Made by a program: the position numbers and the translations under genes
The notes under the pieces: model-generated
Told to the model about the DNA's origin: nothing
Seen by the model: the letters and a program-made list of their open reading frames with translations, nothing else
Database searches by the model: none
NCBI GenBank assembly: GCA_900757025.1
Contig: CAAEMG010000007.1
Span: forward strand, 7,976 to 71,975
DNA length: 64,000 nucleotides
Direction of reading: 5' to 3'
Source of the DNA: Clostridia bacterium
GTDB taxonomy: Bacteria > Bacillota > Clostridia > Lachnospirales > Anaerotignaceae
In this document: one piece after another, positions 1,151 through 55,435 of the stretch
Layout of the letters: each line of letters opens with the position of its first letter
Position numbering within the stretch: position 1 is the first letter of the stretch

Positions 1151-2587
1151 TGCATTTTTCAAAATTTCTTTAAGCATATCATATGTTTCGGCAAATGATG
1201 CAAGACTCATTCTTTCTCTCGGTGTATGAACGTCTTTTACATCGGGCATACACACAATAAGGTCATTCATATTAAGCGATGTAAAAATTGTTCCGGCGTC
1301 AAGGCCAGAATGAATGTACATTCTTATAAAATCTCTATTTGTATGCTCTTTTATGGCTTTTTCATACAAAACAGTAAGAGGAGAATTTTCGTCTACAGTG
1401 TGTCCGCCGTAATTAAACGTAGGCACATATTCAAAGCCGAAAGGCTTAACAAATATTTCTGCCGCCTCAAAAAGCTCTTTTGCATCGGAAGGCATATTTG
1501 CCCTGCTTACATAGTCAAACTCAATTTTATCATCAAATGTTTTTGCCGTTGAAATATTATAAGACTCTATAACTCTTTCCAAATGTTTTATATCAACTTT
1601 TTCCGCACCTACAGGCAGAACAAAAAGAAGTTTAAGTATATCATCAGTATCATCTTTTGAAATTACATCGGAAACTTCACATTCTTTAAGCTCTATTTTC
1701 ATGTTGGGGTCTGTAACGGCATATTCTTTTTTAATTTTTGCGAATATTTTTTCAAAAGCCTTTTCAACTTTTTCCTTTTCTTTGCCGCAGGCAAATACCG
1801 ACACAGTTTCCGGCGGTATTGTGTGAACCATTGTTCCGCCGTCTATTGAAACAAGCCTTATTTCAAGCTCTTTATTTAAGCTGTAAAGTATCCTTCCGGC
1901 AAGTTTTATTGCATTTCCCAAGCCCTGACCTATATTGTTTGCTCCGTGACCCGACGTAAGGCCGTTTATATTAAGGCTGTAGCCCTTTAAAGACGACTTT
2001 TCACGTTTTGTTTTTCTTACAAGTTTTCCTCCTTCAACGGCAGATGCGGAAAATATTGTTGCTCCTTCCGTAAGACCGTCAAGACCTATCATTCTTTTGG
2101 ATTTGAGCAAAGAAAAATCAAGCCCCTTTGCTCCGCCCATTCCGTCCTCTTCCTGAACGGTAAACACAAGCTCAAGAGGCGGATGAGAAAGGTCATTTTC
2201 CTCCAAAAGTCCAAGTATCATTGCTACTCCCGCTCCGTCGTCTGCGCCAAGGGTTGTTCCGTATGTTTTAAGCCAGCCGTCTTCAACAAAAACCTTTATA
2301 GTGTCTTTTGTAAAATCATGTGTGCTTTCCGGAGTTTTCATGCACACCATGTCCATATGTGCCTGAAGCATAAGTGGTTCTTCCGTTTCTCTGCCCCTTG
2401 ATGCCGGAAGATATGCAATTATGTCTCCAATAGCATTTCTGTTTGTTTTAAGCCCTTTTTCATGCAGTTTTTCCTCAACATAATCGGCTGCTTTTTCCTC
2501 ATGGAAAGAGCCTCTCGGAATTTTTAAAAGATTATCAAAAATTTTAAAATTAGGATAATTTTCATATCCGTCATACCATGATGCCAT
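1148..2587 (-). CDS. pepD: Aminoacyl-histidine (Xaa-His) dipeptidase, M20 family
   Basis: The ORF matches the PepD pattern (..LMLQAHMDMVC.., ..GADDGAGVA..). Start moved to ATG 2587 (MASWYDG), which has a GGGAG SD; the longer ORF start lacks an SD. Confidence 0.85.
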   Translation of the reverse strand: MASWYDGYENYPNFKIFDNLLKIPRGSFHEEKAADYVEEKLHEKGLKTNRNAIGDIIAYLPASRGRETEEPLMLQAHMDMVCMKTPESTHDFTKDTIKVFVEDGWLKTYGTTLGADDGAGVAMILGLLEENDLSHPPLELVFTVQEEDGMGGAKGLDFSLLKSKRMIGLDGLTEGATIFSASAVEGGKLVRKTKREKSSLKGYSLNINGLTSGHGANNIGQGLGNAIKLAGRILYSLNKELEIRLVSIDGGTMVHTIPPETVSVFACGKEKEKVEKAFEKIFAKIKKEYAVTDPNMKIELKECEVSDVISKDDTDDILKLLFVLPVGAEKVDIKHLERVIESYNISTAKTFDDKIEFDYVSRANMPSDAKELFEAAEIFVKPFGFEYVPTFNYGGHTVDENSPLTVLYEKAIKEHTNRDFIRMYIHSGLDAGTIFTSLNMNDLIVCMPDVKDVHTPRERMSLASFAETYDMLKEILKNA

Positions 2588-3603: not shown

Positions 3604-3723
3604 AAATTTGTCAGTCATTAGACAAATTGCACAAAAAGCTTTGTATATTATTACGGCTTGATTTTTACTCTTTTTAATTGCAAAATACAGTGTATTACAA
3701 AAATTGTAAGGAGAAGGGTATCT

Positions 3724-4496
3724 ATGTCAGAGAGCAGCGGTGTAAAAATACAATCTTTGGAAAGAGCCTTTGAAATATTAAGGCTGTTTAAAAAACATGA
3801 TGAAATAGGAATTTCGGAAATAGCACAAAGCGTAAATTTAAGCAAAAGCACAGCTTTCGGTCTTGTAAATACACTTGTTAAGATCGGTTTTTTGGAAAAA
3901 GACGCCGACAGCAAAAAATATCGTTTGGGCATGGAGCTTTTTGAGCTTGGAACTCTTGTGGAAAACCGAATGGATATAAAAAAACCGCACAGCCATATTG
4001 CGTTATGCTTTCGCAAAAATACTGCCTTACGGTTCATTTGGCTGCCAATAAAAACGGTGAAGTTTTGTACATAGATAAATATGACCAGCCCGACTTTTTT
4101 ATTATGTATTCCCAAGTGGGACAAACAGCGCCTATGACCTGCACAGGCTTAGGAAAAGCAATGCTTGCCTTTGAAGACGAAAACTATCTGCAAAAATATA
4201 TATTTTCAAAGCCGTTTCCGGTAAAAAACGAAAACTCCATTGCCGATGAAGAAACCCTCAGAAAAATACTTGCCGATATAAAAAATAAAGGCTATGCCTG
4301 CGATAACGGCGAAATGAGCAATGTTCTTAAATGCTATGCTGCCCCAATATTTAACAGACACAAAAAGCCTATAGCCGCAATAAGCGTATCGGGCATTGTA
4401 AATAAAATGGAAAATGAAAATGCACAGGAAATAATAGAAGATGTAAAAAATGTGGCTAAAGAAATATCTCTAAAAATGGGATATAGGGAAATCTGA
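3724..4496 (+). pseudogene. IclR-family transcriptional regulator, split by a frameshift at an A7 tract (3978-3984)
   Basis: The HTH half is in frame 1 (MSESSGVKIQSLERAFEIL...). The effector half is in the next frame (..AQPYCVMLSQKYCLTVHLA...GYACDNGE..ISVSG). One extra A would fuse them. Confidence 0.8.
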
Positions 4497-5614: not shown

Positions 5615-7270
5615 TTATTTTAATTCCGCAATAAGTTTTTCAACGGCTTCAAGAGCTTCATCGGGAAGTTTGTCGTAGCCTTCTTTAAATGTTTCTCTTG
5701 ATTTTATAAATTCAGCTCTGTCTTTAAGTCTTGCTTCCAAAAGACCGTGATATTTTGTATCTGTCATATCAGGAACAAAGCCTTCAACTTCCATAATTTC
5801 CAAATCGGAGAAATTATTCCATTTTTCAAACTGTGCCGTTCCTTCCACAACAGCCTCTATGCAGGAAAGAGTAACCTCTTTTGTTATCTTCTTATCTACA
5901 AAGAAACCTGTGTTAAGTATATAGCAGTCAACATTTTCGTTTTCAAAAAGGTCTTTAAACTTTTCATAGTCGTTTGCCAAAGGATATGTTCTGAAAGGAT
6001 TTGCATAGCTTTCAAAAACAAGTGCATCCGGATCTACCCCCGGAGCAAGTCTTTCGGCAGTTGTTCTTTTTGTTGCAAGAGCCGCACCCATTGCAGAAGA
6101 AAGAACCGAACCTTTAACCTTAACTATAGGCGGCATTGAAGGGTCTTTCATAAGATAGAATATGGCGTTTATAGGCTCTTCAAGTTTGTCAACTCTTTCC
6201 GGCGACCACAATTTGCTCTTTATTGCTCTTCCGTTTCCGTTTCTCAAATCTTCTGTTACAAGAACAACTTTGTTGTCCTCGTCAAGTGTTGCGCCTACGT
6301 TCTGAACAGAAAGGAGGTATTTATTGTCTGGGCTTGACATAGGATAATCCTGTGTTTTATCGAAATATGAAGGTTCAAGCGCCACAGATGAGCCGTTTTC
6401 CGTAGAAATAATAAAAGCGTCGTCGTGAAGAACGGTTATATCATATTTTCCGTCATGCTTTGCGTGTGTAATTGTGGATTTTCCGGAACCGGAAAGGCCG
6501 AAAACGCCAACAACAAATTTTCTTCCGTCCGGAAGGTTATAGCATTTTTCTCCTCCGTGGCAGGAAGCATAGCCGTTTCTGTTGGCTATTGTCCATGCAA
6601 GTGTAAGAGTTCCTTTTTTAAGCTCCCCAAAATATTTCATGCCGAGTATGCAGGCACAGTTGTGGAGAGGGTCAAAAAACGCAAGACCAAAAGGATAGTC
6701 GGGATGTGACCAGTCTGGGTCTGCAAAAATATATATATCGCCTTCGTTATTCATCTGTTTTGAATAACGGTACATTTTTGTGTATTCGGCTGTAATATAC
6801 TGGAAGTTGAGAAGCCAGTTATAAAGAAGAATTTCATGGTTTTCCGGTATACAAAGGTTTGCACGAACCATAAAATCCGGGTCAAGACCTATATATGCCT
6901 TGCCGTGATAAAGCTTTTTTGTTCTTGCCGCATATACGGCCTCTCTTATATGAGAACATATTTTTTTAACGTCAACACCGGGTTCTCCAGCTATTCTTCT
7001 TGCGGCGGCTGTTCTTCCCGTTACGGCTCCGTCGTTAAAAAGAAGAACCTTTGCGCCTTCCGGAAGACCTATTTCTTCCGGTCTTTCAACAGAAAGGTCT
7101 GTTATTACAACTCCCGGAGTTTTGCAGGCAAGTTCATAGCCCTGTTTGAGAGTTGTTACGGGAACTACATTATTTCCGTAAAATACGCTTTCGATAGTTG
7201 TTCTTGCCATAGAGAAAATGGGATTTTCCGTTGTTATTTCATCCCAGCTGAATTTTGCTTTTGTTGCCAT
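5615..7270 (-). CDS. pckA: Phosphoenolpyruvate carboxykinase (ATP)
   Basis: 551 aa. The kinase-1a P-loop GLSGSGKST and overall PEPCK-ATP pattern are present. Confidence 0.85.
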   Translation of the reverse strand: MATKAKFSWDEITTENPIFSMARTTIESVFYGNNVVPVTTLKQGYELACKTPGVVITDLSVERPEEIGLPEGAKVLLFNDGAVTGRTAAARRIAGEPGVDVKKICSHIREAVYAARTKKLYHGKAYIGLDPDFMVRANLCIPENHEILLYNWLLNFQYITAEYTKMYRYSKQMNNEGDIYIFADPDWSHPDYPFGLAFFDPLHNCACILGMKYFGELKKGTLTLAWTIANRNGYASCHGGEKCYNLPDGRKFVVGVFGLSGSGKSTITHAKHDGKYDITVLHDDAFIISTENGSSVALEPSYFDKTQDYPMSSPDNKYLLSVQNVGATLDEDNKVVLVTEDLRNGNGRAIKSKLWSPERVDKLEEPINAIFYLMKDPSMPPIVKVKGSVLSSAMGAALATKRTTAERLAPGVDPDALVFESYANPFRTYPLANDYEKFKDLFENENVDCYILNTGFFVDKKITKEVTLSCIEAVVEGTAQFEKWNNFSDLEIMEVEGFVPDMTDTKYHGLLEARLKDRAEFIKSRETFKEGYDKLPDEALEAVEKLIAELK

Positions 7271-13469: not shown

Positions 13470-13770
13470 ATTTTGGTAAAAGAACCCTAATTGATAATAC
13501 CGTCCGGTTGCTTATGAAAGCGTTGGCAAAAAATAAACACACAATAATAAAAAATAGTAGGCAAAAGCAATAAAAGTAATACATGGTAACAAATCAAAAG
13601 TTGGGTAATACTTTTCTTTGCCGAAAACCATCAATATTTTGTCGTGTTGAGCGAATGTCGCAAGACCGCAGTCGAATACATGAAAAAAACGATAAACTTA
13701 CGGGTTTCGTCTAATCTCATAAGTTCTTTCGGCTCCGTTTCATTTCGCTTAGGATAACAAAATATTTTAG
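13470..13770 (+). repeat. Mosaic intergenic repeat, copy R4 (TIR pair enclosing about 90 bp)
   Basis: Left TIR CAATATTTTGTCGTGTTGAGCGAA (13632-13655). Inverted partner TTTCGCTTAGGATAACAAAATATTTT (13743-13768). Upstream pieces are shared with R1 and R6. Confidence 0.65.
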
Positions 13771-13870
13771 ATTTTAAACTATTCGCCAAGCCATAATTTT
13801 TCTTCCCCACACAGCAAAAAACAGTGCCGTGAATTAAATTCCCGACACTGCCTTTTTTAAATTTCATTCA

Positions 13871-16393
13871 TTATTCTTTTTCGGAATCGTCTTTAGACTC
13901 TTCTGTGTTTTCTTTGCTTTTTTCATCCTCTGTAGCCTGTTTTTTAATTTCAAAATCAGCCTTGAGGTCAAACTGTGCCTCGCCGTCCTTTGCACTTACT
14001 ACAACCGTATCGCCGGCTTTGAACTTGCCGTCAAGGAAGCTTTCCGCAAAAGCATCTTCGATTTTGCTCTGTAAAGCTCTTCTTAAAGGTCTTGCGCCGT
14101 ATGCCGGATCAAAGCCTTCTTTTGCAATATAGTCTATTGCACTGTCGTCAAATTCAACTGTAATATCCATGTTTTCGTCAACACGTTTTACAATATCCTT
14201 AGCCATAAGCTTTACGATTTCTTTTACGTTTTCTTCGTTAAGGGCATGGAATACGATTATATCATCAATTCTGTTAAGAAATTCCGGTCTGAAAATGTTT
14301 TTAAGGTCAGCCATAACGCCTTTTTTCATTTCGTCATATGTCTTTTCCTTCTGCTCAACTTCGCCGTTCTTAAATCCAAGTGTCTTAGATTCAACAATGT
14401 TTCTTGCGCCTGCGTTTGATGTCATAATTATAACGGTATTCTTAAAGTCTACCTTTCTGCCCTGACCGTCTGTAATATGGCCATCATCAAGAACCTGAAG
14501 AAGTACGTTAAATACATCAGGAGAAGCCTTTTCAATTTCATCGAAAAGAACTACCGAATAAGGTTTTCTTCTTACCTTTTCGCTAAGCTGTCCGCCTTCT
14601 TCATATCCTACATATCCCGGAGGAGCACCGATAAGTTTTGACACATCGAATTTTTCCATATATTCGCTCATATCAATTCTTATCATAGCGTTTTCATCGC
14701 CGAAAAGAACTTCCGCAAGAGCCTTTGAAAGCTCTGTTTTACCAACACCTGTAGGGCCTAAGAAAAGGAATGAACCTATAGGTCTCTTAGGGTCTTTAAG
14801 GCCAACTCTGCCACGTCTTATTGCCTTTGCAACGGCTGATACTGCCTCTTCCTGTCCGATTACTCTTTCATGGAGAATTTTTTCCATGTTAAGAAGTCTT
14901 TCGCCTTCCTCCTGCTGAATACTCTTTACAGGAATACCTGTCCAGTTTGCAATTACATCGGCAATTTCGTTTTCCGTAACAACTTTATCTTTTGAAGAGT
15001 TTTTAAGCTCCCAGTTTTTCTTTGCGTCCTCAAGTTTCTTTTTAAGGCCGTCCTGCTGTTTCTTAACCTTTGAAGCCTTTTCAAAGTCTTCTGTTTTAAC
15101 AGCCTCTTCCTTTTCTTTTTCAAGAGATGAAAGCTCGTCTTCAAGTTCTTTTATACCGCTTGGAGCTGTAAATGTTTCAAGACGCATTTTTGATGCAGCT
15201 TCATCAATAAGGTCGATAGCCTTATCCGGAAGAAATCTGTCTGTAATATATCTTGAACTCATCTTTACGGCTGCCTCGATAGCCTCATCGCTGATTTTTA
15301 CATTGTGGTGAGCCTCATATTTATCTCTTAAACCGTAAAGCATTTTAATTGCTGCCTCTTCGTCAGGCTCTTCAACCTTTACAGGCTGGAAACGTCTTTC
15401 AAGGGCTGCATCTTTTTCGATATATTTTCTGTATTCGTTTATTGTTGTTGCACCTATAAGCTGAATTTCGCCTCTTGCAAGAGATGGTTTCAAAATATTT
15501 GACGCATCTATTGCACCTTCGGCACCGCCGGCACCTATAATTGTATGGATTTCATCAATAAAGAGAATTACATGACCGTCTTTTTTAACTTCGTCCATTA
15601 CAGATTTAATTCTTTCCTCAAATTCGCCTCTGTATTTGCTGCCTGCAACCATTGATGAAATATCAAGGCAGACAACTCTTTTGTCTTTAAGTATTTCGGG
15701 AATATCGCCTTTGGCAATTTTCTGTGCAAGACCTTCGGCAATAGCTGTTTTACCAACACCAGGGTCGCCCACAAGACAAGGATTGTTCTTTGTTCTTCGG
15801 CTTAAAATCTGAATTACTCTGTCAATTTCCTTATCACGGCCTATAATAGGGTCAAACTTGTTGTCCTTTGCCATCTGTGTAAAATCTCTGCTGTATTTAT
15901 CAAGGTTTGGTGTGTTGCCTTCGCCTGTTGAAGCCGATGAAGAACCGTTTCCGTCTTTTTCGCCTTCACCCAGCATATTCATTACATCTTCATAAATTCT
16001 CTGGATATTTGCACCCAAAGATGCAAGAATTTTAACGGCAATGCAGTCGCTTTCGCTTAAAAGAGCAATAAGAATATGCTCTGTGCCAACATAGCCTGCC
16101 TGAAGGTTTACAGCCTCCTGAACACTTCTGTCTATAATTCTTTTAACTCTCGGTGTATAGCCTTCGGCACCTGATGTGCTGTTGCCTCTGCCGATAACCG
16201 TTTCAACTTTATCCCAAACATCGCTGCGGCTTATGCCCTGGCTTTCAATGGCTTTTGCAGCCACGCTGTCGCTTACAGACATAATGCCGATAAGAAGATG
16301 TTCTGTTCCTATATAATCATGGCCAAGATCATAAGCGGCTTCCTGTGCCTTTCTTATAACTTCCTGTGCCTTTTCAGTAAATTTTCCCTGCAT
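13871..16393 (-). CDS. clpC: ATP-dependent Clp protease ATP-binding subunit ClpC
   Basis: 840 aa with a double Clp-N repeat, two AAA+ modules (GDPGVGKT, GPTGVGKT) and a UVR-like linker. There is an extra acidic C-terminal tail. Confidence 0.95.
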   Translation of the reverse strand: MQGKFTEKAQEVIRKAQEAAYDLGHDYIGTEHLLIGIMSVSDSVAAKAIESQGISRSDVWDKVETVIGRGNSTSGAEGYTPRVKRIIDRSVQEAVNLQAGYVGTEHILIALLSESDCIAVKILASLGANIQRIYEDVMNMLGEGEKDGNGSSSASTGEGNTPNLDKYSRDFTQMAKDNKFDPIIGRDKEIDRVIQILSRRTKNNPCLVGDPGVGKTAIAEGLAQKIAKGDIPEILKDKRVVCLDISSMVAGSKYRGEFEERIKSVMDEVKKDGHVILFIDEIHTIIGAGGAEGAIDASNILKPSLARGEIQLIGATTINEYRKYIEKDAALERRFQPVKVEEPDEEAAIKMLYGLRDKYEAHHNVKISDEAIEAAVKMSSRYITDRFLPDKAIDLIDEAASKMRLETFTAPSGIKELEDELSSLEKEKEEAVKTEDFEKASKVKKQQDGLKKKLEDAKKNWELKNSSKDKVVTENEIADVIANWTGIPVKSIQQEEGERLLNMEKILHERVIGQEEAVSAVAKAIRRGRVGLKDPKRPIGSFLFLGPTGVGKTELSKALAEVLFGDENAMIRIDMSEYMEKFDVSKLIGAPPGYVGYEEGGQLSEKVRRKPYSVVLFDEIEKASPDVFNVLLQVLDDGHITDGQGRKVDFKNTVIIMTSNAGARNIVESKTLGFKNGEVEQKEKTYDEMKKGVMADLKNIFRPEFLNRIDDIIVFHALNEENVKEIVKLMAKDIVKRVDENMDITVEFDDSAIDYIAKEGFDPAYGARPLRRALQSKIEDAFAESFLDGKFKAGDTVVVSAKDGEAQFDLKADFEIKKQATEDEKSKENTEESKDDSEKE

Positions 16394-16416: not shown

Positions 16417-17445
16417 TTAATTTTTAAATGTTCTTCTAAGGTAATCCGCTCTTGCCTCATCACGCTTGTTTACATCATTTGTGTTTGAGGAAAGCTGTAT
16501 ATTGCCCGGCTGAACATTTATCATAATATTATATATTGTTTCGTTTACCTTTGGAATATCCGAAAGCCCTAAAAGATAACCCTCTCTTATATTTGAAAGG
16601 TGTTTCATTGCTTCCGAACCCGATATTTTTCTTGCATTTTGAATTATTCCCAGTGAACGGTAAATTCTGTCCTCGGTTTCAATTCTTTCGTTTTTCATGT
16701 GGCTTTCTCTTATTTTCAGCTCTCTGTCTTTAACAAATTTAACCACATTTTTAAGATTTTTGATAATCTCCTGCTCGCTCTGACCCAGTGTAACCTGATT
16801 TGAAATTTGATATATGCTGCCCAAAGCCTCGCTGCCTTCGCCGTAAATTCCTCGTATTGTTACGCCGAATTTACTTATGGCTTCAAGAAGATTTTTCATC
16901 TGTCCCGCTCTTTCTATAAAGGGCAGGTGCATCATAAACGATGCCCTAAGCCCTGTACCCATATTTGTAGGACAGGCTGTTATATAGCCATATTTTTCAT
17001 TGTAGGCATATTCAACGCTTTCTTCAATAAGGTCATCTATTTTATCGGCTAAATCCCAAGCTTTATCAATGTTTTCGCCGGGAAATACCGTTTGTATTCT
17101 TATGTGGTCTTCTTCGTTAAGCATTATGCTTACGGTTTCATCGTTTTTTACAAGCACTGCACAGTTTTTGTTTTTGCTTAAAAGCACAGGGCTTATAATA
17201 TGTTTTTCCATAAGCTCTTTTTTCTTTAAAGCCGGAAGATAATTAACCTCTATAAACTCAAAATCCTTTGAAATAGGAGTTCTTTCGTTTACTATAGCGT
17301 CCTTAACCTCATCAATCATCTGTTTCGTCTGGGTTTCATTCATAGTTTCGGGGAAAGGATACTTTTTAAGGTTTCTTGCCAATCTCACTCTTGAGGAAAT
17401 AACTATGCCTTCATTACAGGCGCTGTCTTCATACCATTTTGACAT
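16417..17445 (-). CDS. mcsB: Protein arginine kinase McsB
   Basis: ATP:guanido phosphotransferase pattern (..SSRVRLARNL.., ..CPTNMGTGLRAS..). ATG 17445 follows the mcsA stop, with AAGGAGG upstream. Confidence 0.9.
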   Translation of the reverse strand: MSKWYEDSACNEGIVISSRVRLARNLKKYPFPETMNETQTKQMIDEVKDAIVNERTPISKDFEFIEVNYLPALKKKELMEKHIISPVLLSKNKNCAVLVKNDETVSIMLNEEDHIRIQTVFPGENIDKAWDLADKIDDLIEESVEYAYNEKYGYITACPTNMGTGLRASFMMHLPFIERAGQMKNLLEAISKFGVTIRGIYGEGSEALGSIYQISNQVTLGQSEQEIIKNLKNVVKFVKDRELKIRESHMKNERIETEDRIYRSLGIIQNARKISGSEAMKHLSNIREGYLLGLSDIPKVNETIYNIMINVQPGNIQLSSNTNDVNKRDEARADYLRRTFKN

Positions 17446-17446
17446 A

Positions 17447-17950
17447 TTATTTATCCTCCTTTTCAAGCTCTTTTATTCTGTCCCTAAGTTTTGCCGCCTC
17501 TTCATACTCTTCATTTTCTATTGCCGAAGCAAGCTTTCTTTTAAGAATTTCCTTTTCACGCTTTGCGGCAAGTTTACCTCCGCTTTTATGAGGAATTTTT
17601 CCTTTATGTTCATCACTGCCGTGAATACTTTTAAGAACCGAATCCATATATGGGCTGAAAGCCTTTATACAGTCTCCGCAGCCAAGTTTGCCGCTTTGCC
17701 TGAACTGGTCATAAGTCATGCCGCAGGAAGGACATCTTGCGGAAGCTATATTATGATATTCGTTTCCCAAAAAAGCATTGTCTGCCGTTACGTTAAACAA
17801 ATCCTTAAACATATTATCAAATGAAAAGCTTGTTGCGAGGCCGGCTTTTTCAGCACAATGGCTGCACAAATACATTTCTTTTACATCGCCGTTAATAACC
17901 TGTTTCATATGAACCGTTGCAGGGTTCTTTTTGCATCTTTCACAAAGCAT
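17447..17950 (-). CDS. mcsA: McsA (UvrB/UvrC-motif, zinc-finger activator of McsB)
   Basis: CxxC pairs (CERC, CSHC, CPSC, CGDC) and a UVR motif EEYEEAAKLRDRIKELE. Start ATG 17950 lies 7 nt after GGAGG. Confidence 0.85.
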   Translation of the reverse strand: MLCERCKKNPATVHMKQVINGDVKEMYLCSHCAEKAGLATSFSFDNMFKDLFNVTADNAFLGNEYHNIASARCPSCGMTYDQFRQSGKLGCGDCIKAFSPYMDSVLKSIHGSDEHKGKIPHKSGGKLAAKREKEILKRKLASAIENEEYEEAAKLRDRIKELEKEDK

Positions 17951-17966
17951 ACACAAGCCTCCTTTG

Positions 17967-17993
17967 TTAGCCACCTTGCTATTAGGTTGCTAA
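17967..17993 (-). promoter_or_regulatory. Proximal CIRCE-geometry inverted repeat TTAGCAACC-N9-GGTGGCTAA
   Basis: 9-N9-9 inverted repeat with 8/9 arm complementarity. It ends 4 nt (CAAA) before the mcsA SD. 13/18 arm matches to the CIRCE consensus TTAGCACTC-N9-GAGTGCTAA. Confidence 0.55.
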
Positions 17994-18040
17994 AGCATAT
18001 CCAAAATATAAGACCTTAACGGTCATTTTTTCTTTTTTTG

Positions 18041-18067
18041 TTAGCCACTAAACTATATGATTGCTAA
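18041..18067 (-). promoter_or_regulatory. Distal CIRCE-geometry inverted repeat TTAGCAATC-N9-AGTGGCTAA
   Basis: Direct repeat of the proximal element 74 bp away (shared TTAGCAA..TAG...GTGGCTAACAAA). It starts 12 nt after the putative -10. Confidence 0.55.
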
Positions 18068-18080
18068 CTTTTATAATGCT

Positions 18081-18108
18081 ATAATATCACTGTTTTTCTA
18101 TTTGTCAA
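18081..18108 (-). promoter_or_regulatory. Putative sigma-A promoter of mcsA-mcsB-clpC
   Basis: TTGACA (18108-18103), 16-nt spacer, TATTAT (18086-18081). Confidence 0.55.
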
Positions 18109-18238
18109 TAGTTTTTTTAAAATTTTTCAAAAAATTTTTAAACAGACATTTTTATATATTTTTCGACACTTTCACAAAACATTCATATTATAATCACATA
18201 ATATATTTGTAAACAGAAATAAACTTATTTAAAATAAA

Positions 18239-18263
18239 AGCCTGCTTTCAGAAAAAGCAGGCT
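18239..18263. terminator. Bidirectional terminator ending the feo operon
   Basis: AGCCTGCTTT-CAGAA-AAAGCAGGCT flanked by A/T runs. Confidence 0.8.
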
Positions 18264-18270
18264 TTTATTT

Positions 18271-18438
18271 TTATTTTTTATTCAATTCATCCATAAGCTG
18301 TTTGCTTGGACAGTCTTTAACGCTGCATCCGCTGCAACCGCCTCCGCAGCCGGTTGATTTTCTTTTTTTCATAACTCTTATGCTGTTTGCAACTATAAGT
18401 ATAACAACAAGCACAAGAAGAATATCCCATACAGACAT
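18271..18438 (-). CDS. FeoB-associated Cys-rich small membrane protein (55 aa, below the ORF-track cutoff)
   Basis: Hand translation gives MSVWDILLVLVVILIVANSIRVMKKRKSTGCGGGCSGCSVKDCPSKQLMDELNKK*. GGAGG lies 6 nt upstream and the gene is directly downstream of feoB. Confidence 0.75.
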   Translation of the reverse strand: MSVWDILLVLVVILIVANSIRVMKKRKSTGCGGGCSGCSVKDCPSKQLMDELNKK

Positions 18439-28395: not shown

Positions 28396-28411
28396 CAGCA
28401 TAAATTCAATA

Positions 28412-28495
28412 TTTAACAGGGGTGCTGAGGTGCTGCAACCTATGCTGAGAGAGTCCCTTTGAACCTGATGCGGTCAGTACCGTTGTAGGGAGTAT
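28412..28495 (+). promoter_or_regulatory. TPP (THI-box) riboswitch
   Basis: ACAGGGGTGCTGAGG...CTGAGAGAGTCCCTTTGAACCTGATGCGGTCAGTACCGTTGTAGGGAG matches the conserved THI element core. It lies upstream of tenA. Confidence 0.9.
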
Positions 28496-28582
28496 GATAT
28501 ATTTGTTTATTTTAAACCATCTCCCTGCGGAAATGGCTTTTTTTATGTTCTTTAAAGCCCCATTAATAAAAGGAGGATATTT

Positions 28583-52947: not shown

Positions 52948-53095
52948 AGCTCAGCACCTCCAAACAAAATAAAAAAAGCGGACAGCAAAACTATCCGCAA
53001 AAAATCTACATAAAGGCTTATGCCTAAAGTTATATTTATTAACCCTGTCGTGCTTTGTGCCGCAAGGTGAGAAGCGGATACTTCTGCTTTGTTAC
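52948..53095 (-). promoter_or_regulatory. infC-rpmI-rplT leader with a terminator/antiterminator (L20-leader-type attenuator)
   Basis: Minus-strand hairpin GCGGATAG-TTTTG-CTGTCCGC plus T7 (52998-52971) lies upstream of the SD. An upstream TATCCGC can pair with the terminator 5' arm. Confidence 0.55.
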
Positions 53096-55194: not shown

Positions 55195-55435
55195 TAAAAA
55201 AGCCCCTGTCCGCATTTGCAGACAGGGACGAATTAACGTGGTTCCACCCTGATTATTTTTTCCTAAGAAAAAACATCTCTAAAGCCTTAACGCAGCTTAA
55301 ACGGGCATTTTTTCAGTGCCGCTCAAAGTTCAGTTTTCACCGCAATGTTTCTTAAAAACGCTTTCAGCCTGTGGCGTTTTCTCTCTTTAAGGCTTGTATA
55401 CGGCTACTCTACTTTTCATAGCTTTTTTCTTATAC
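55195..55435 (-). promoter_or_regulatory. T-box leader (threonine-type) with a terminator
   Basis: Minus strand carries AGAGAG, the T-box AATCAGGGTGGAACCACG (55254-55237) and the terminator CCCTGTC..GACAGGG plus a T-run (55227-55195). Candidate specifier is ACT in GGTGAAAACTG. Confidence 0.85.

Follow-up and report, generated by a model that had tools for sequence, protein, structure and literature searches.

Asymmetric CIRCE-type elements before a ctsR-less mcsA-mcsB-clpC operon point to probable HrcA control of a wider heat-shock regulon in Lachnospirales

The 64,000-nt window analysed here (contig CAAEMG010000007.1 of the Clostridia bacterium assembly GCA_900757025.1, Anaerotignaceae) holds an mcsA-mcsB-clpC operon whose leader, read like the operon on the minus strand, carries two related elements resembling the controlling inverted repeat of chaperone expression (CIRCE); all coordinates are those of this window. 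Together with about 110 relatives, this locus suggests that in the dominant gut order Lachnospirales a CIRCE-type operator governs the genes for Clp proteins, Hsp20, Lon, HtpG and McsAB; ctsR was seen at none of these loci. From these comparisons we consider it probable (roughly 0.7) that HrcA has taken the place of CtsR and represses mcsA-mcsB-clpC through a pair of weak, asymmetric CIRCE variants. The heat-shock response of Firmicutes is usually taught as two circuits, with HrcA and CIRCE serving the chaperones and CtsR serving the Clp proteases and McsAB. CIRCE is the HrcA operator TTAGCACTC-N9-GAGTGCTAA of the class I operons groESL and hrcA-grpE-dnaK-dnaJ, and mcsA-mcsB-clpC is controlled by CtsR in Bacillus, Listeria, Staphylococcus and Clostridium.

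Both elements consist of the pentamers TTAGC and GCTAA 17 nt apart, the geometry of CIRCE, and TTAGC-N17-GCTAA occurs exactly twice in the 64 kb (0.09 occurrences expected; 0 of 100 shuffles reached two). The core common to both, TTAGCAA-N12-GTGGCTAAC, has no other match in the window even at 3 mismatches. The distal element lies just past the sigma-A promoter of a heat-shock operon, a location expected of CIRCE. An initial annotation of the sequence had described two related elements, the distal one starting 12 nt past the promoter, 74 bp from a proximal one that ends 3 nt short of the ribosome-binding site (RBS), each matching 13 of the 18 canonical arm positions, and every one of these figures was reproduced, the first as 12–13 nt past the −10 box. 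With 5 mismatches in each copy, neither has the strict CIRCE sequence, a near-perfect 9-bp inverted repeat that usually shows at most 2 mismatches, and no canonical CIRCE is found in the 64-kb window at up to 3 mismatches. When a gap is allowed, the distal element can be read as TTAGCAATC-N8-TAGTG[G]CTAA, which matches 16 of 18 CIRCE positions with one inserted G, and the proximal element, with the same 8-nt spacer and inserted right-arm G, matches 14 of 18 in our own alignment. Because the conserved right arm is [A/G]GTGGCTAA and the inner arm positions are non-complementary, the element lacks the symmetry of a true inverted repeat or palindrome. The 9-N9-9 inverted repeat initially proposed reads better as one CIRCE half-site (TTAGCAnTC) joined to a conserved odd half, TGGCTAA[C/T]AA, which, given an 8-nt spacer, can itself be taken as a CIRCE arm with one G added.

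Relatives picked by McsA protein homology (82% to ~51% identity), without reference to the motif, preserve the elements. A metagenome scan with McsA gave 9 loci, of which L019 proved a useful close relative, and the mcsA leaders of L011, L015, L017, L019, L027, L028 and L029 (handles given to the retrieved loci) served as a motif-independent sample. In all of these relatives mcsA heads the operon and no ctsR is present, with upstream neighbours that vary (pseudouridine synthase, cold-shock protein, feo genes), and the element appears once or twice in each mcsA leader; the conservation in orthologous upstream regions for which the initial annotation had called was thus borne out in every ctsR-less relative fetched. 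Distal-type sites lie at the matching position in L019, L011, L015 and L027, the same four loci in which the sigma-A promoter is conserved, and proximal-type sites are present in L019, L011, L015 and L017. The consensus in ctsR-less relatives is TTAGCA[C/A/G]TC-N9-[A/G]GTGGCTAA[C/T]AA, with TGGCTAA invariant (12/12 sites) and the left arm TTAGCA[C/A/G]TC kept in 10/12, the exceptions being the proximal element of the window (TTAGCAACC) and L027 (TTGGCAGTC). In the closest relative, L019, the site reads TTAGCACTC-N8-GAGTG[G]CTAA, an exact CIRCE left arm followed by a CIRCE right arm with an extra G, and the sites of L028 and L029 read TTAGCACTC-N9-GGTGGCTAA. Within the window's own species, a comparison of ten contigs found 1 variable position out of 36 in the arms, as compared with 19 of 165 upstream of the promoter, and the spacers also vary more than the arms, a weak trend whose counts are too small for significance. 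The exact McsA of the window is also encoded on contigs ERZ28617901 scaffold_80 and ERZ28575743 scaffold_141, and ERZ773275 NODE_26 encodes another of the window's proteins. Obligate cooperative looping between two sites was considered and dropped because the inter-site spacings in relatives (74, 72, 99 and 162 bp) keep no helical phase.

No trace of the usual CtsR circuit was detected around the operon. No ctsR open reading frame (ORF) lies in the window, none of any kind lies between the feo terminator and mcsA, and ctsR was not found in the 10 kb past either end; a CtsR probe that detects ctsR in the control locus L021 gave no signal in the window or at any of the Lachnospirales loci. The tandem heptad RGTCAAA-NAN-RGTCAAA is absent from the regulatory region, and its matches across the window are fewer than expected by chance. 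The annotation's statements that ctsR is missing between mcsA and the feo terminator, and that no CtsR heptad direct repeat lies near the operon, therefore hold on ORF, probe and motif evidence. The locus L021 provides the contrast, with a ctsR gene (checked with Pfam) and a CtsR box, GGTCAAAGAAAGACAAA, before mcsA and no CIRCE-like site. The HspR operator, the HspR-associated inverted repeat CTTGAGT-N7-ACTCAAG, has a single window match, which has 3 mismatches, is distant (2102..2122) and falls below the number expected by chance. Two distant McsA loci were also noted. In L023 (36% identity; ~3620–4000) a GntR-family regulator gene (PF00392) lies directly before mcsA, the usual position of ctsR, with neither a CtsR box nor a CIRCE-like site, an arrangement that may represent a third wiring mode of the operon. 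In L022 (~3790–3815) a different inverted repeat, TAGCAACCAC-N3-GTGATTGCTA, lies about 200 nt upstream of mcsA, and its half-site resembles the window arm TTAGCAA[T/C]CA at a different spacing.

A scan with the pattern TTAGCANTC-N11-TGGCTAAYA across one genome per species (185,579 species) returned at least 120 loci. Among the 120 matches listed, about 110 sites lie <330 nt upstream of heat-shock genes, the identities of which were checked with curated models, and this shows that the sites belong to a coherent heat-shock regulon, as is expected of CIRCE; about 8 of the listed matches, in unrelated taxa, resemble chance. Lachnospiraceae, Anaerotignaceae and unclassified Clostridia make up most of the taxa among the matches listed. 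The downstream genes are clpB (Lachnospiraceae; Fusobacterium), hsp18/hsp20 (Lachnospiraceae; Megasphaera), clpC without mcsAB (Anaerotignum, ASF356), lon (Lachnospiraceae, Sellimonas, Peptococcaceae), htpG (Clostridiales; Fusobacterium), ftsH and ctc (Lachnospiraceae), groES-groEL (L034, a metagenome-assembled genome of Syntrophorhabdales), hrcA (L148) and mcsA itself, the last in nine further species among the matches listed, including Ca. Metalachnospira gallinarum. Two features of these sites were recorded separately. In Fusobacterium (L032, L079, L084, L094, L095, L132, L133) the element TTAGCCAnn-N9-GAGTGCTAA stands before htpG or clpB on the gene strand, abutting the RBS, and has the same half-canonical, half-TGGCTAA design as in Lachnospirales in an orientation opposite to that of most Lachnospirales sites. 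In 39 of 69 Lachnospiraceae clpB/hsp20 leaders (L060, L061, L062, L038, L048, L051, L052, L076, L080 and L087 among them) the sequence TAGAACA (often TAGAACAAAGGA) occurs ~8–15 nt past the −10 box and forms, with the extended −10 TGTTATA, the imperfect inverted repeat TGTTATA-N7-TAGAACA, which is absent from the leader in the window and may mark either another operator or conserved sequence around the start site.

Several observations connect this family of sites to HrcA. Most sites have the exact CIRCE left arm in addition to the TTAGC-N17-GCTAA geometry, and canonical and variant sites have a GCTAA[C/T]AA flank in common. In L148 the only site upstream of hrcA (TIGR00331, 320 bits) is TTAGCCACT-N9-GAGTGCTAA, and in L034 groES-groEL is preceded by TTAGCAATC-N9-AATGGCTAA, 5 nt past the −10 box. 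The two types of site also occur side by side: single contigs of L060 and L112 carry hsp20 with near-canonical right arms adjoining clpB with variant arms, and one Lachnospiraceae contig (L062) has a perfect CIRCE before hrcA and the variant before hsp20 6 kb away. A second Lachnospiraceae species (L152) has a perfect CIRCE before hrcA-grpE-dnaK-dnaJ, with a 3' flank (GCTAACAAA) and a promoter-operator-RBS layout that match those of the window. Clustering of all ORFs within 3.5 kb of the sites revealed no recurrent transcription-factor gene. The variant precedes heat-shock genes in Fusobacterium (htpG, clpB), Peptococcaceae (lon), Megasphaera (hsp20) and Syntrophorhabdales (groES), and this spread over several phyla fits only a widely distributed regulator such as HrcA. 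The suggestion, made initially from the window alone, that the operon has been rewired to HrcA thus draws support from the CIRCE-type sites before heat-shock genes, including hrcA and groES, and from their co-occurrence with canonical CIRCE. In the contigs L152–L156 (GCA_041406445.1 and ENA contigs), the calls for hrcA, grpE, dnaK, dnaJ and mgsA are broken into many short fragments, which probably reflects assembly frameshift errors rather than true pseudogenes. Because of this fragmentation, a database search for HrcA with a probe of 36 real residues and a generic HrcA continuation, meant to retrieve real proteins, gave only proteins of 73–118 amino acids (aa).

We infer HrcA as the binder, repression as the direction of regulation and a feedback loop, which together would give the following scheme. 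In unstressed cells an HrcA dimer would occupy both operators, the distal one (~+5 to +31) and the proximal one just before the RBS, and would block sigma-A-dependent transcription of mcsA-mcsB-clpC at promoter clearance or during elongation. As unfolded proteins accumulate, HrcA would become inactive and the operon would be derepressed. A class III operon normally headed by ctsR would in this way have been absorbed into an enlarged HrcA regulon alongside clpB, hsp20, lon, htpG and ftsH. Binding at the asymmetric sites is probably weaker than at canonical CIRCE, which could mean higher basal expression or earlier induction, and the presence of two copies may compensate. HrcA and CtsR have been named as major substrates of McsB (PMC11046695), and the operon may therefore feed back on its own repressor, as in the CtsR circuit: if HrcA is an McsB substrate here too, derepression would supply more McsB and ClpC and so lead to further inactivation of HrcA.

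A number of points weigh against HrcA as the repressor. CIRCE of Mollicutes has been judged functional only with 2 mismatches or fewer (PMC5138195), and the 5 mismatches of each window site exceed that tolerance. The deviation is moreover systematic, with TGGCTAA kept in place of GTGCTAA and an inner right arm that is non-complementary to the left, which a symmetric homodimer does not obviously predict and which a different or modified binder would fit too. The left arm, too, is off consensus in Anaerotignum and in the lineage of the window (A or G at position 7), and canonical CIRCE at hrc operons came to light in Lachnospiraceae proper alone, not in the closer relatives of the window. No hrcA was found in the 64-kb window or in the 10 kb past each end; that this organism has hrcA and lacks ctsR is an assumption drawn from its relatives.

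Under a second reading raised initially, that of an unknown TTAGC-binding factor, the asymmetric element would be read by a regulator other than HrcA. This could be a paralogue of HrcA or else an unrelated protein, either by itself or with an HrcA subunit, an alternative that we consider unlikely. Under it, TTAGCAnTC...TGGCTAAYAA would define a separate ‘Clp/Hsp20’ regulon that replaced CtsR, with canonical CIRCE and HrcA kept for the dnaK operon, which is the only class I operon seen with canonical CIRCE in this clade. The fixation of the right arm as TGGCTAA in all 12 motif-independent sites, in place of a drift around GAGTGCTAA, speaks for such a regulator, as do the non-complementary arms and the excess over the two-mismatch tolerance of Mollicutes HrcA (PMC5138195). 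The perfect CIRCE at both Lachnospiraceae hrc operons, set against the variant at clpB, clpC and mcsA, likewise hints at two classes of site. However, the classes mix in L060 and L112, hrcA itself (L148) and groES (L034) bear the variant, and canonical and variant sites are alike in geometry and flank; the sites lack a linked candidate regulator gene, and the occurrence of the variant in several phyla makes a new lineage-specific factor unlikely. A related proposal, which we hold to be similarly doubtful, is that the element is more than a weak CIRCE and forms a distinct operator class, recognized by a paralogue or partner protein of HrcA or by HrcA itself in another register, with the inner half-site displaced by 1 bp. 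If that were true, gut Clostridia, and apparently Fusobacteria, would have a second heat-shock tier (Clp, Lon, HtpG, Hsp20 and McsAB) that replaces CtsR and stands apart from the dnaK/groE tier.

The reading of the leader as a structured 5' untranslated region, also raised initially, did not survive, and we regard it as very improbable that the elements act mainly as RNA, that is, as leader hairpins for mRNA stability, translation or attenuation, possibly together with a small hairpin and U-run. Both window elements are transcribed and each is able to form a short stem, a hairpin with a U-run recurs in mcsA leaders, and canonical CIRCE in B. subtilis has been reported to influence mRNA stability as well. 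Against this, the leader folds no better than its shuffled controls (z = −0.84), Rfam gave no match at the element sites at gathering or permissive thresholds, and over 116 distinct sites Watson-Crick pairing at the inner arm positions, beyond the 5-bp TTAGC/GCTAA stem, is only 3–34%. The stem of the proximal element excludes the RBS, and among the matches listed the element is found in either orientation relative to the gene. Its position varies as well: it follows the −10 box in the window and close relatives, precedes the −35 box in L148, and contains the −35 hexamer in most Lachnospiraceae clpB/hsp20 promoters and in the mcsA promoters of L067, L108, L124 and L128, where a TG-extended −10 box follows 17 nt further on. 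In these −35-overlapping orthologues the element lies upstream of the transcription start and is not transcribed, so the element works as a DNA site rather than as a hairpin in RNA.

Chance similarity or decaying relics of a former CIRCE, to which the 13/18 canonical matches per copy might point, are extremely improbable given 2 sites in the window against 0.09 expected, conservation among McsA relatives down to ~50% identity despite differing flanking genes, more than 100 heat-shock genes preceded by the variant and, as a weak trend, the low within-species variability of the arms.

Set beside canonical CIRCE, the elements thus have the same outer pentamer spacing, an identical or nearly identical left arm, the same placement between or overlapping the sigma-A promoter and the start codon, and the same tie to heat-shock genes, and related genomes with variant sites also hold hrcA and canonical CIRCE. 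They differ in the right arm, [A/G]GTGGCTAA instead of GAGTGCTAA, and in their target here, which is the class III operon. Compared with ctsR-mcsA-mcsB-clpC of Bacillus subtilis and other Firmicutes, the window operon has the same structural genes and a putative repressor operator beside a sigma-A promoter, the regulon content overlaps (clp genes, hsp20) and McsB feedback on the repressor is possible, whereas ctsR and the tandem RGTCAAA heptads are lacking and the operator sequence is unrelated; L021 has the classical arrangement. After HrcA/CIRCE itself, the nearest parallel is with the expanded HrcA regulons of CtsR-less Mollicutes, in which HrcA/CIRCE controls dnaK, clpB and lon and two CIRCE copies per promoter are known from Spiroplasma dnaK and clpB (PMC5138195). 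There, as proposed here, HrcA-type operators precede Clp ATPase and Lon genes and HrcA is the main or only heat-shock repressor, but those operators are canonical CIRCE with at most 2 mismatches, whereas here the variant is asymmetric and the regulon includes the mcsA-mcsB arginine kinase system. Our literature search found no description of this variant or of HrcA-type control of mcsA-mcsB-clpC.

Standard CIRCE searches would miss such a conserved, lopsided operator. If HrcA does bind it, these genomes would offer a set of natural operators, strong where canonical and presumably weak where variant, for studies of graded derepression, as well as a ready motif for annotating stress regulons in gut metagenomes. 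HrcA binding would also predict a new loop, in which HrcA represses the kinase/protease system that targets HrcA in B. subtilis.

Table 1 Features of the mcsA-mcsB-clpC operon and its leader, in coordinates of the 64-kb window.
Feature	Position	Strand	Detail
Distal operator GTTAGCAATCATATAGTTTAGTGGCTAAC (putative)	18040..18068	-	G-TTAGCAATC-ATATAGTTT-AGTGGCTAA-C
Proximal operator TTTAGCAACCTAATAGCAAGGTGGCTAAC (putative)	17966..17994	-	T-TTAGCAACC-TAATAGCAA-GGTGGCTAA-C
Sigma-A-type promoter of mcsA-mcsB-clpC	18081..18108	-	TTGACA-16-TATTAT, TG-extended −10; 11/12 consensus matches
Small hairpin GACCGTTAAGGTC then U-run TTATATTTT, between the operators	18003..18024	-	predicted stem
RBS of mcsA, GGAGG	17958..17962	-	direct sequence reading
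mcsA start codon, ATG	17950	-	
mcsA	17447..17950	-	167 aa; first gene of the operon, no ctsR ahead; NF053706
mcsB	16417..17445	-	342-aa protein arginine kinase (gene call of L001); NF002194, 415 bits (cut-off 385)
clpC	13871..16393	-	Clp ATPase, 840 aa; NCBIfam
Intrinsic terminator of the feoA-feoB-feoB-associated operon	18231..18271	.	18-pair stem then T-run; marks the 5' boundary of the regulatory region

The small hairpin between the two operators was not flagged by a terminator scan, its stem being too weak. Similar short hairpins with a U-run recur in the mcsA leaders of L019 (~3927–3950), L028 (~5838–5865 and ~5958–5975), L011, L029, L053, L066, L119 and L070, and in a Metalachnospira-type lineage the hairpin GAAAACCTGTATAGGTTTT, followed by TTATTTT, stands between the promoter and a single operator, with the stem kept and the loop variable. 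Such a hairpin may serve in attenuation or pausing, or may mark where a short leader RNA ends. A candidate upstream ORF of 14 codons in the leader, starting at ~18025 (−), was dropped, as L019 has no counterpart at the same place.

The assignment of mcsA rests on a full-length alignment to NF053706 (E = 7.8e-49) with a score of 165.9 bits, under the curated cut-off of 210. Upstream of the mcsA leader lie feoA, feoB and a gene for a FeoB-associated small protein. Directly after clpC, a 78-aa ORF (13631–13867, −) has no Pfam or NCBIfam match, and the equivalent place in L008 is occupied by a 126-aa gene call. Elsewhere in the window, a T-box leader (55221–55428, −), a ribosomal protein L20 leader (52964–53095, −) and a thiamine pyrophosphate riboswitch (28408–28508, +) score above Rfam gathering thresholds, and the gene table of L151 suggests that the T-box and the L20 leader belong to thrS and infC-rpmI-rplT, respectively.

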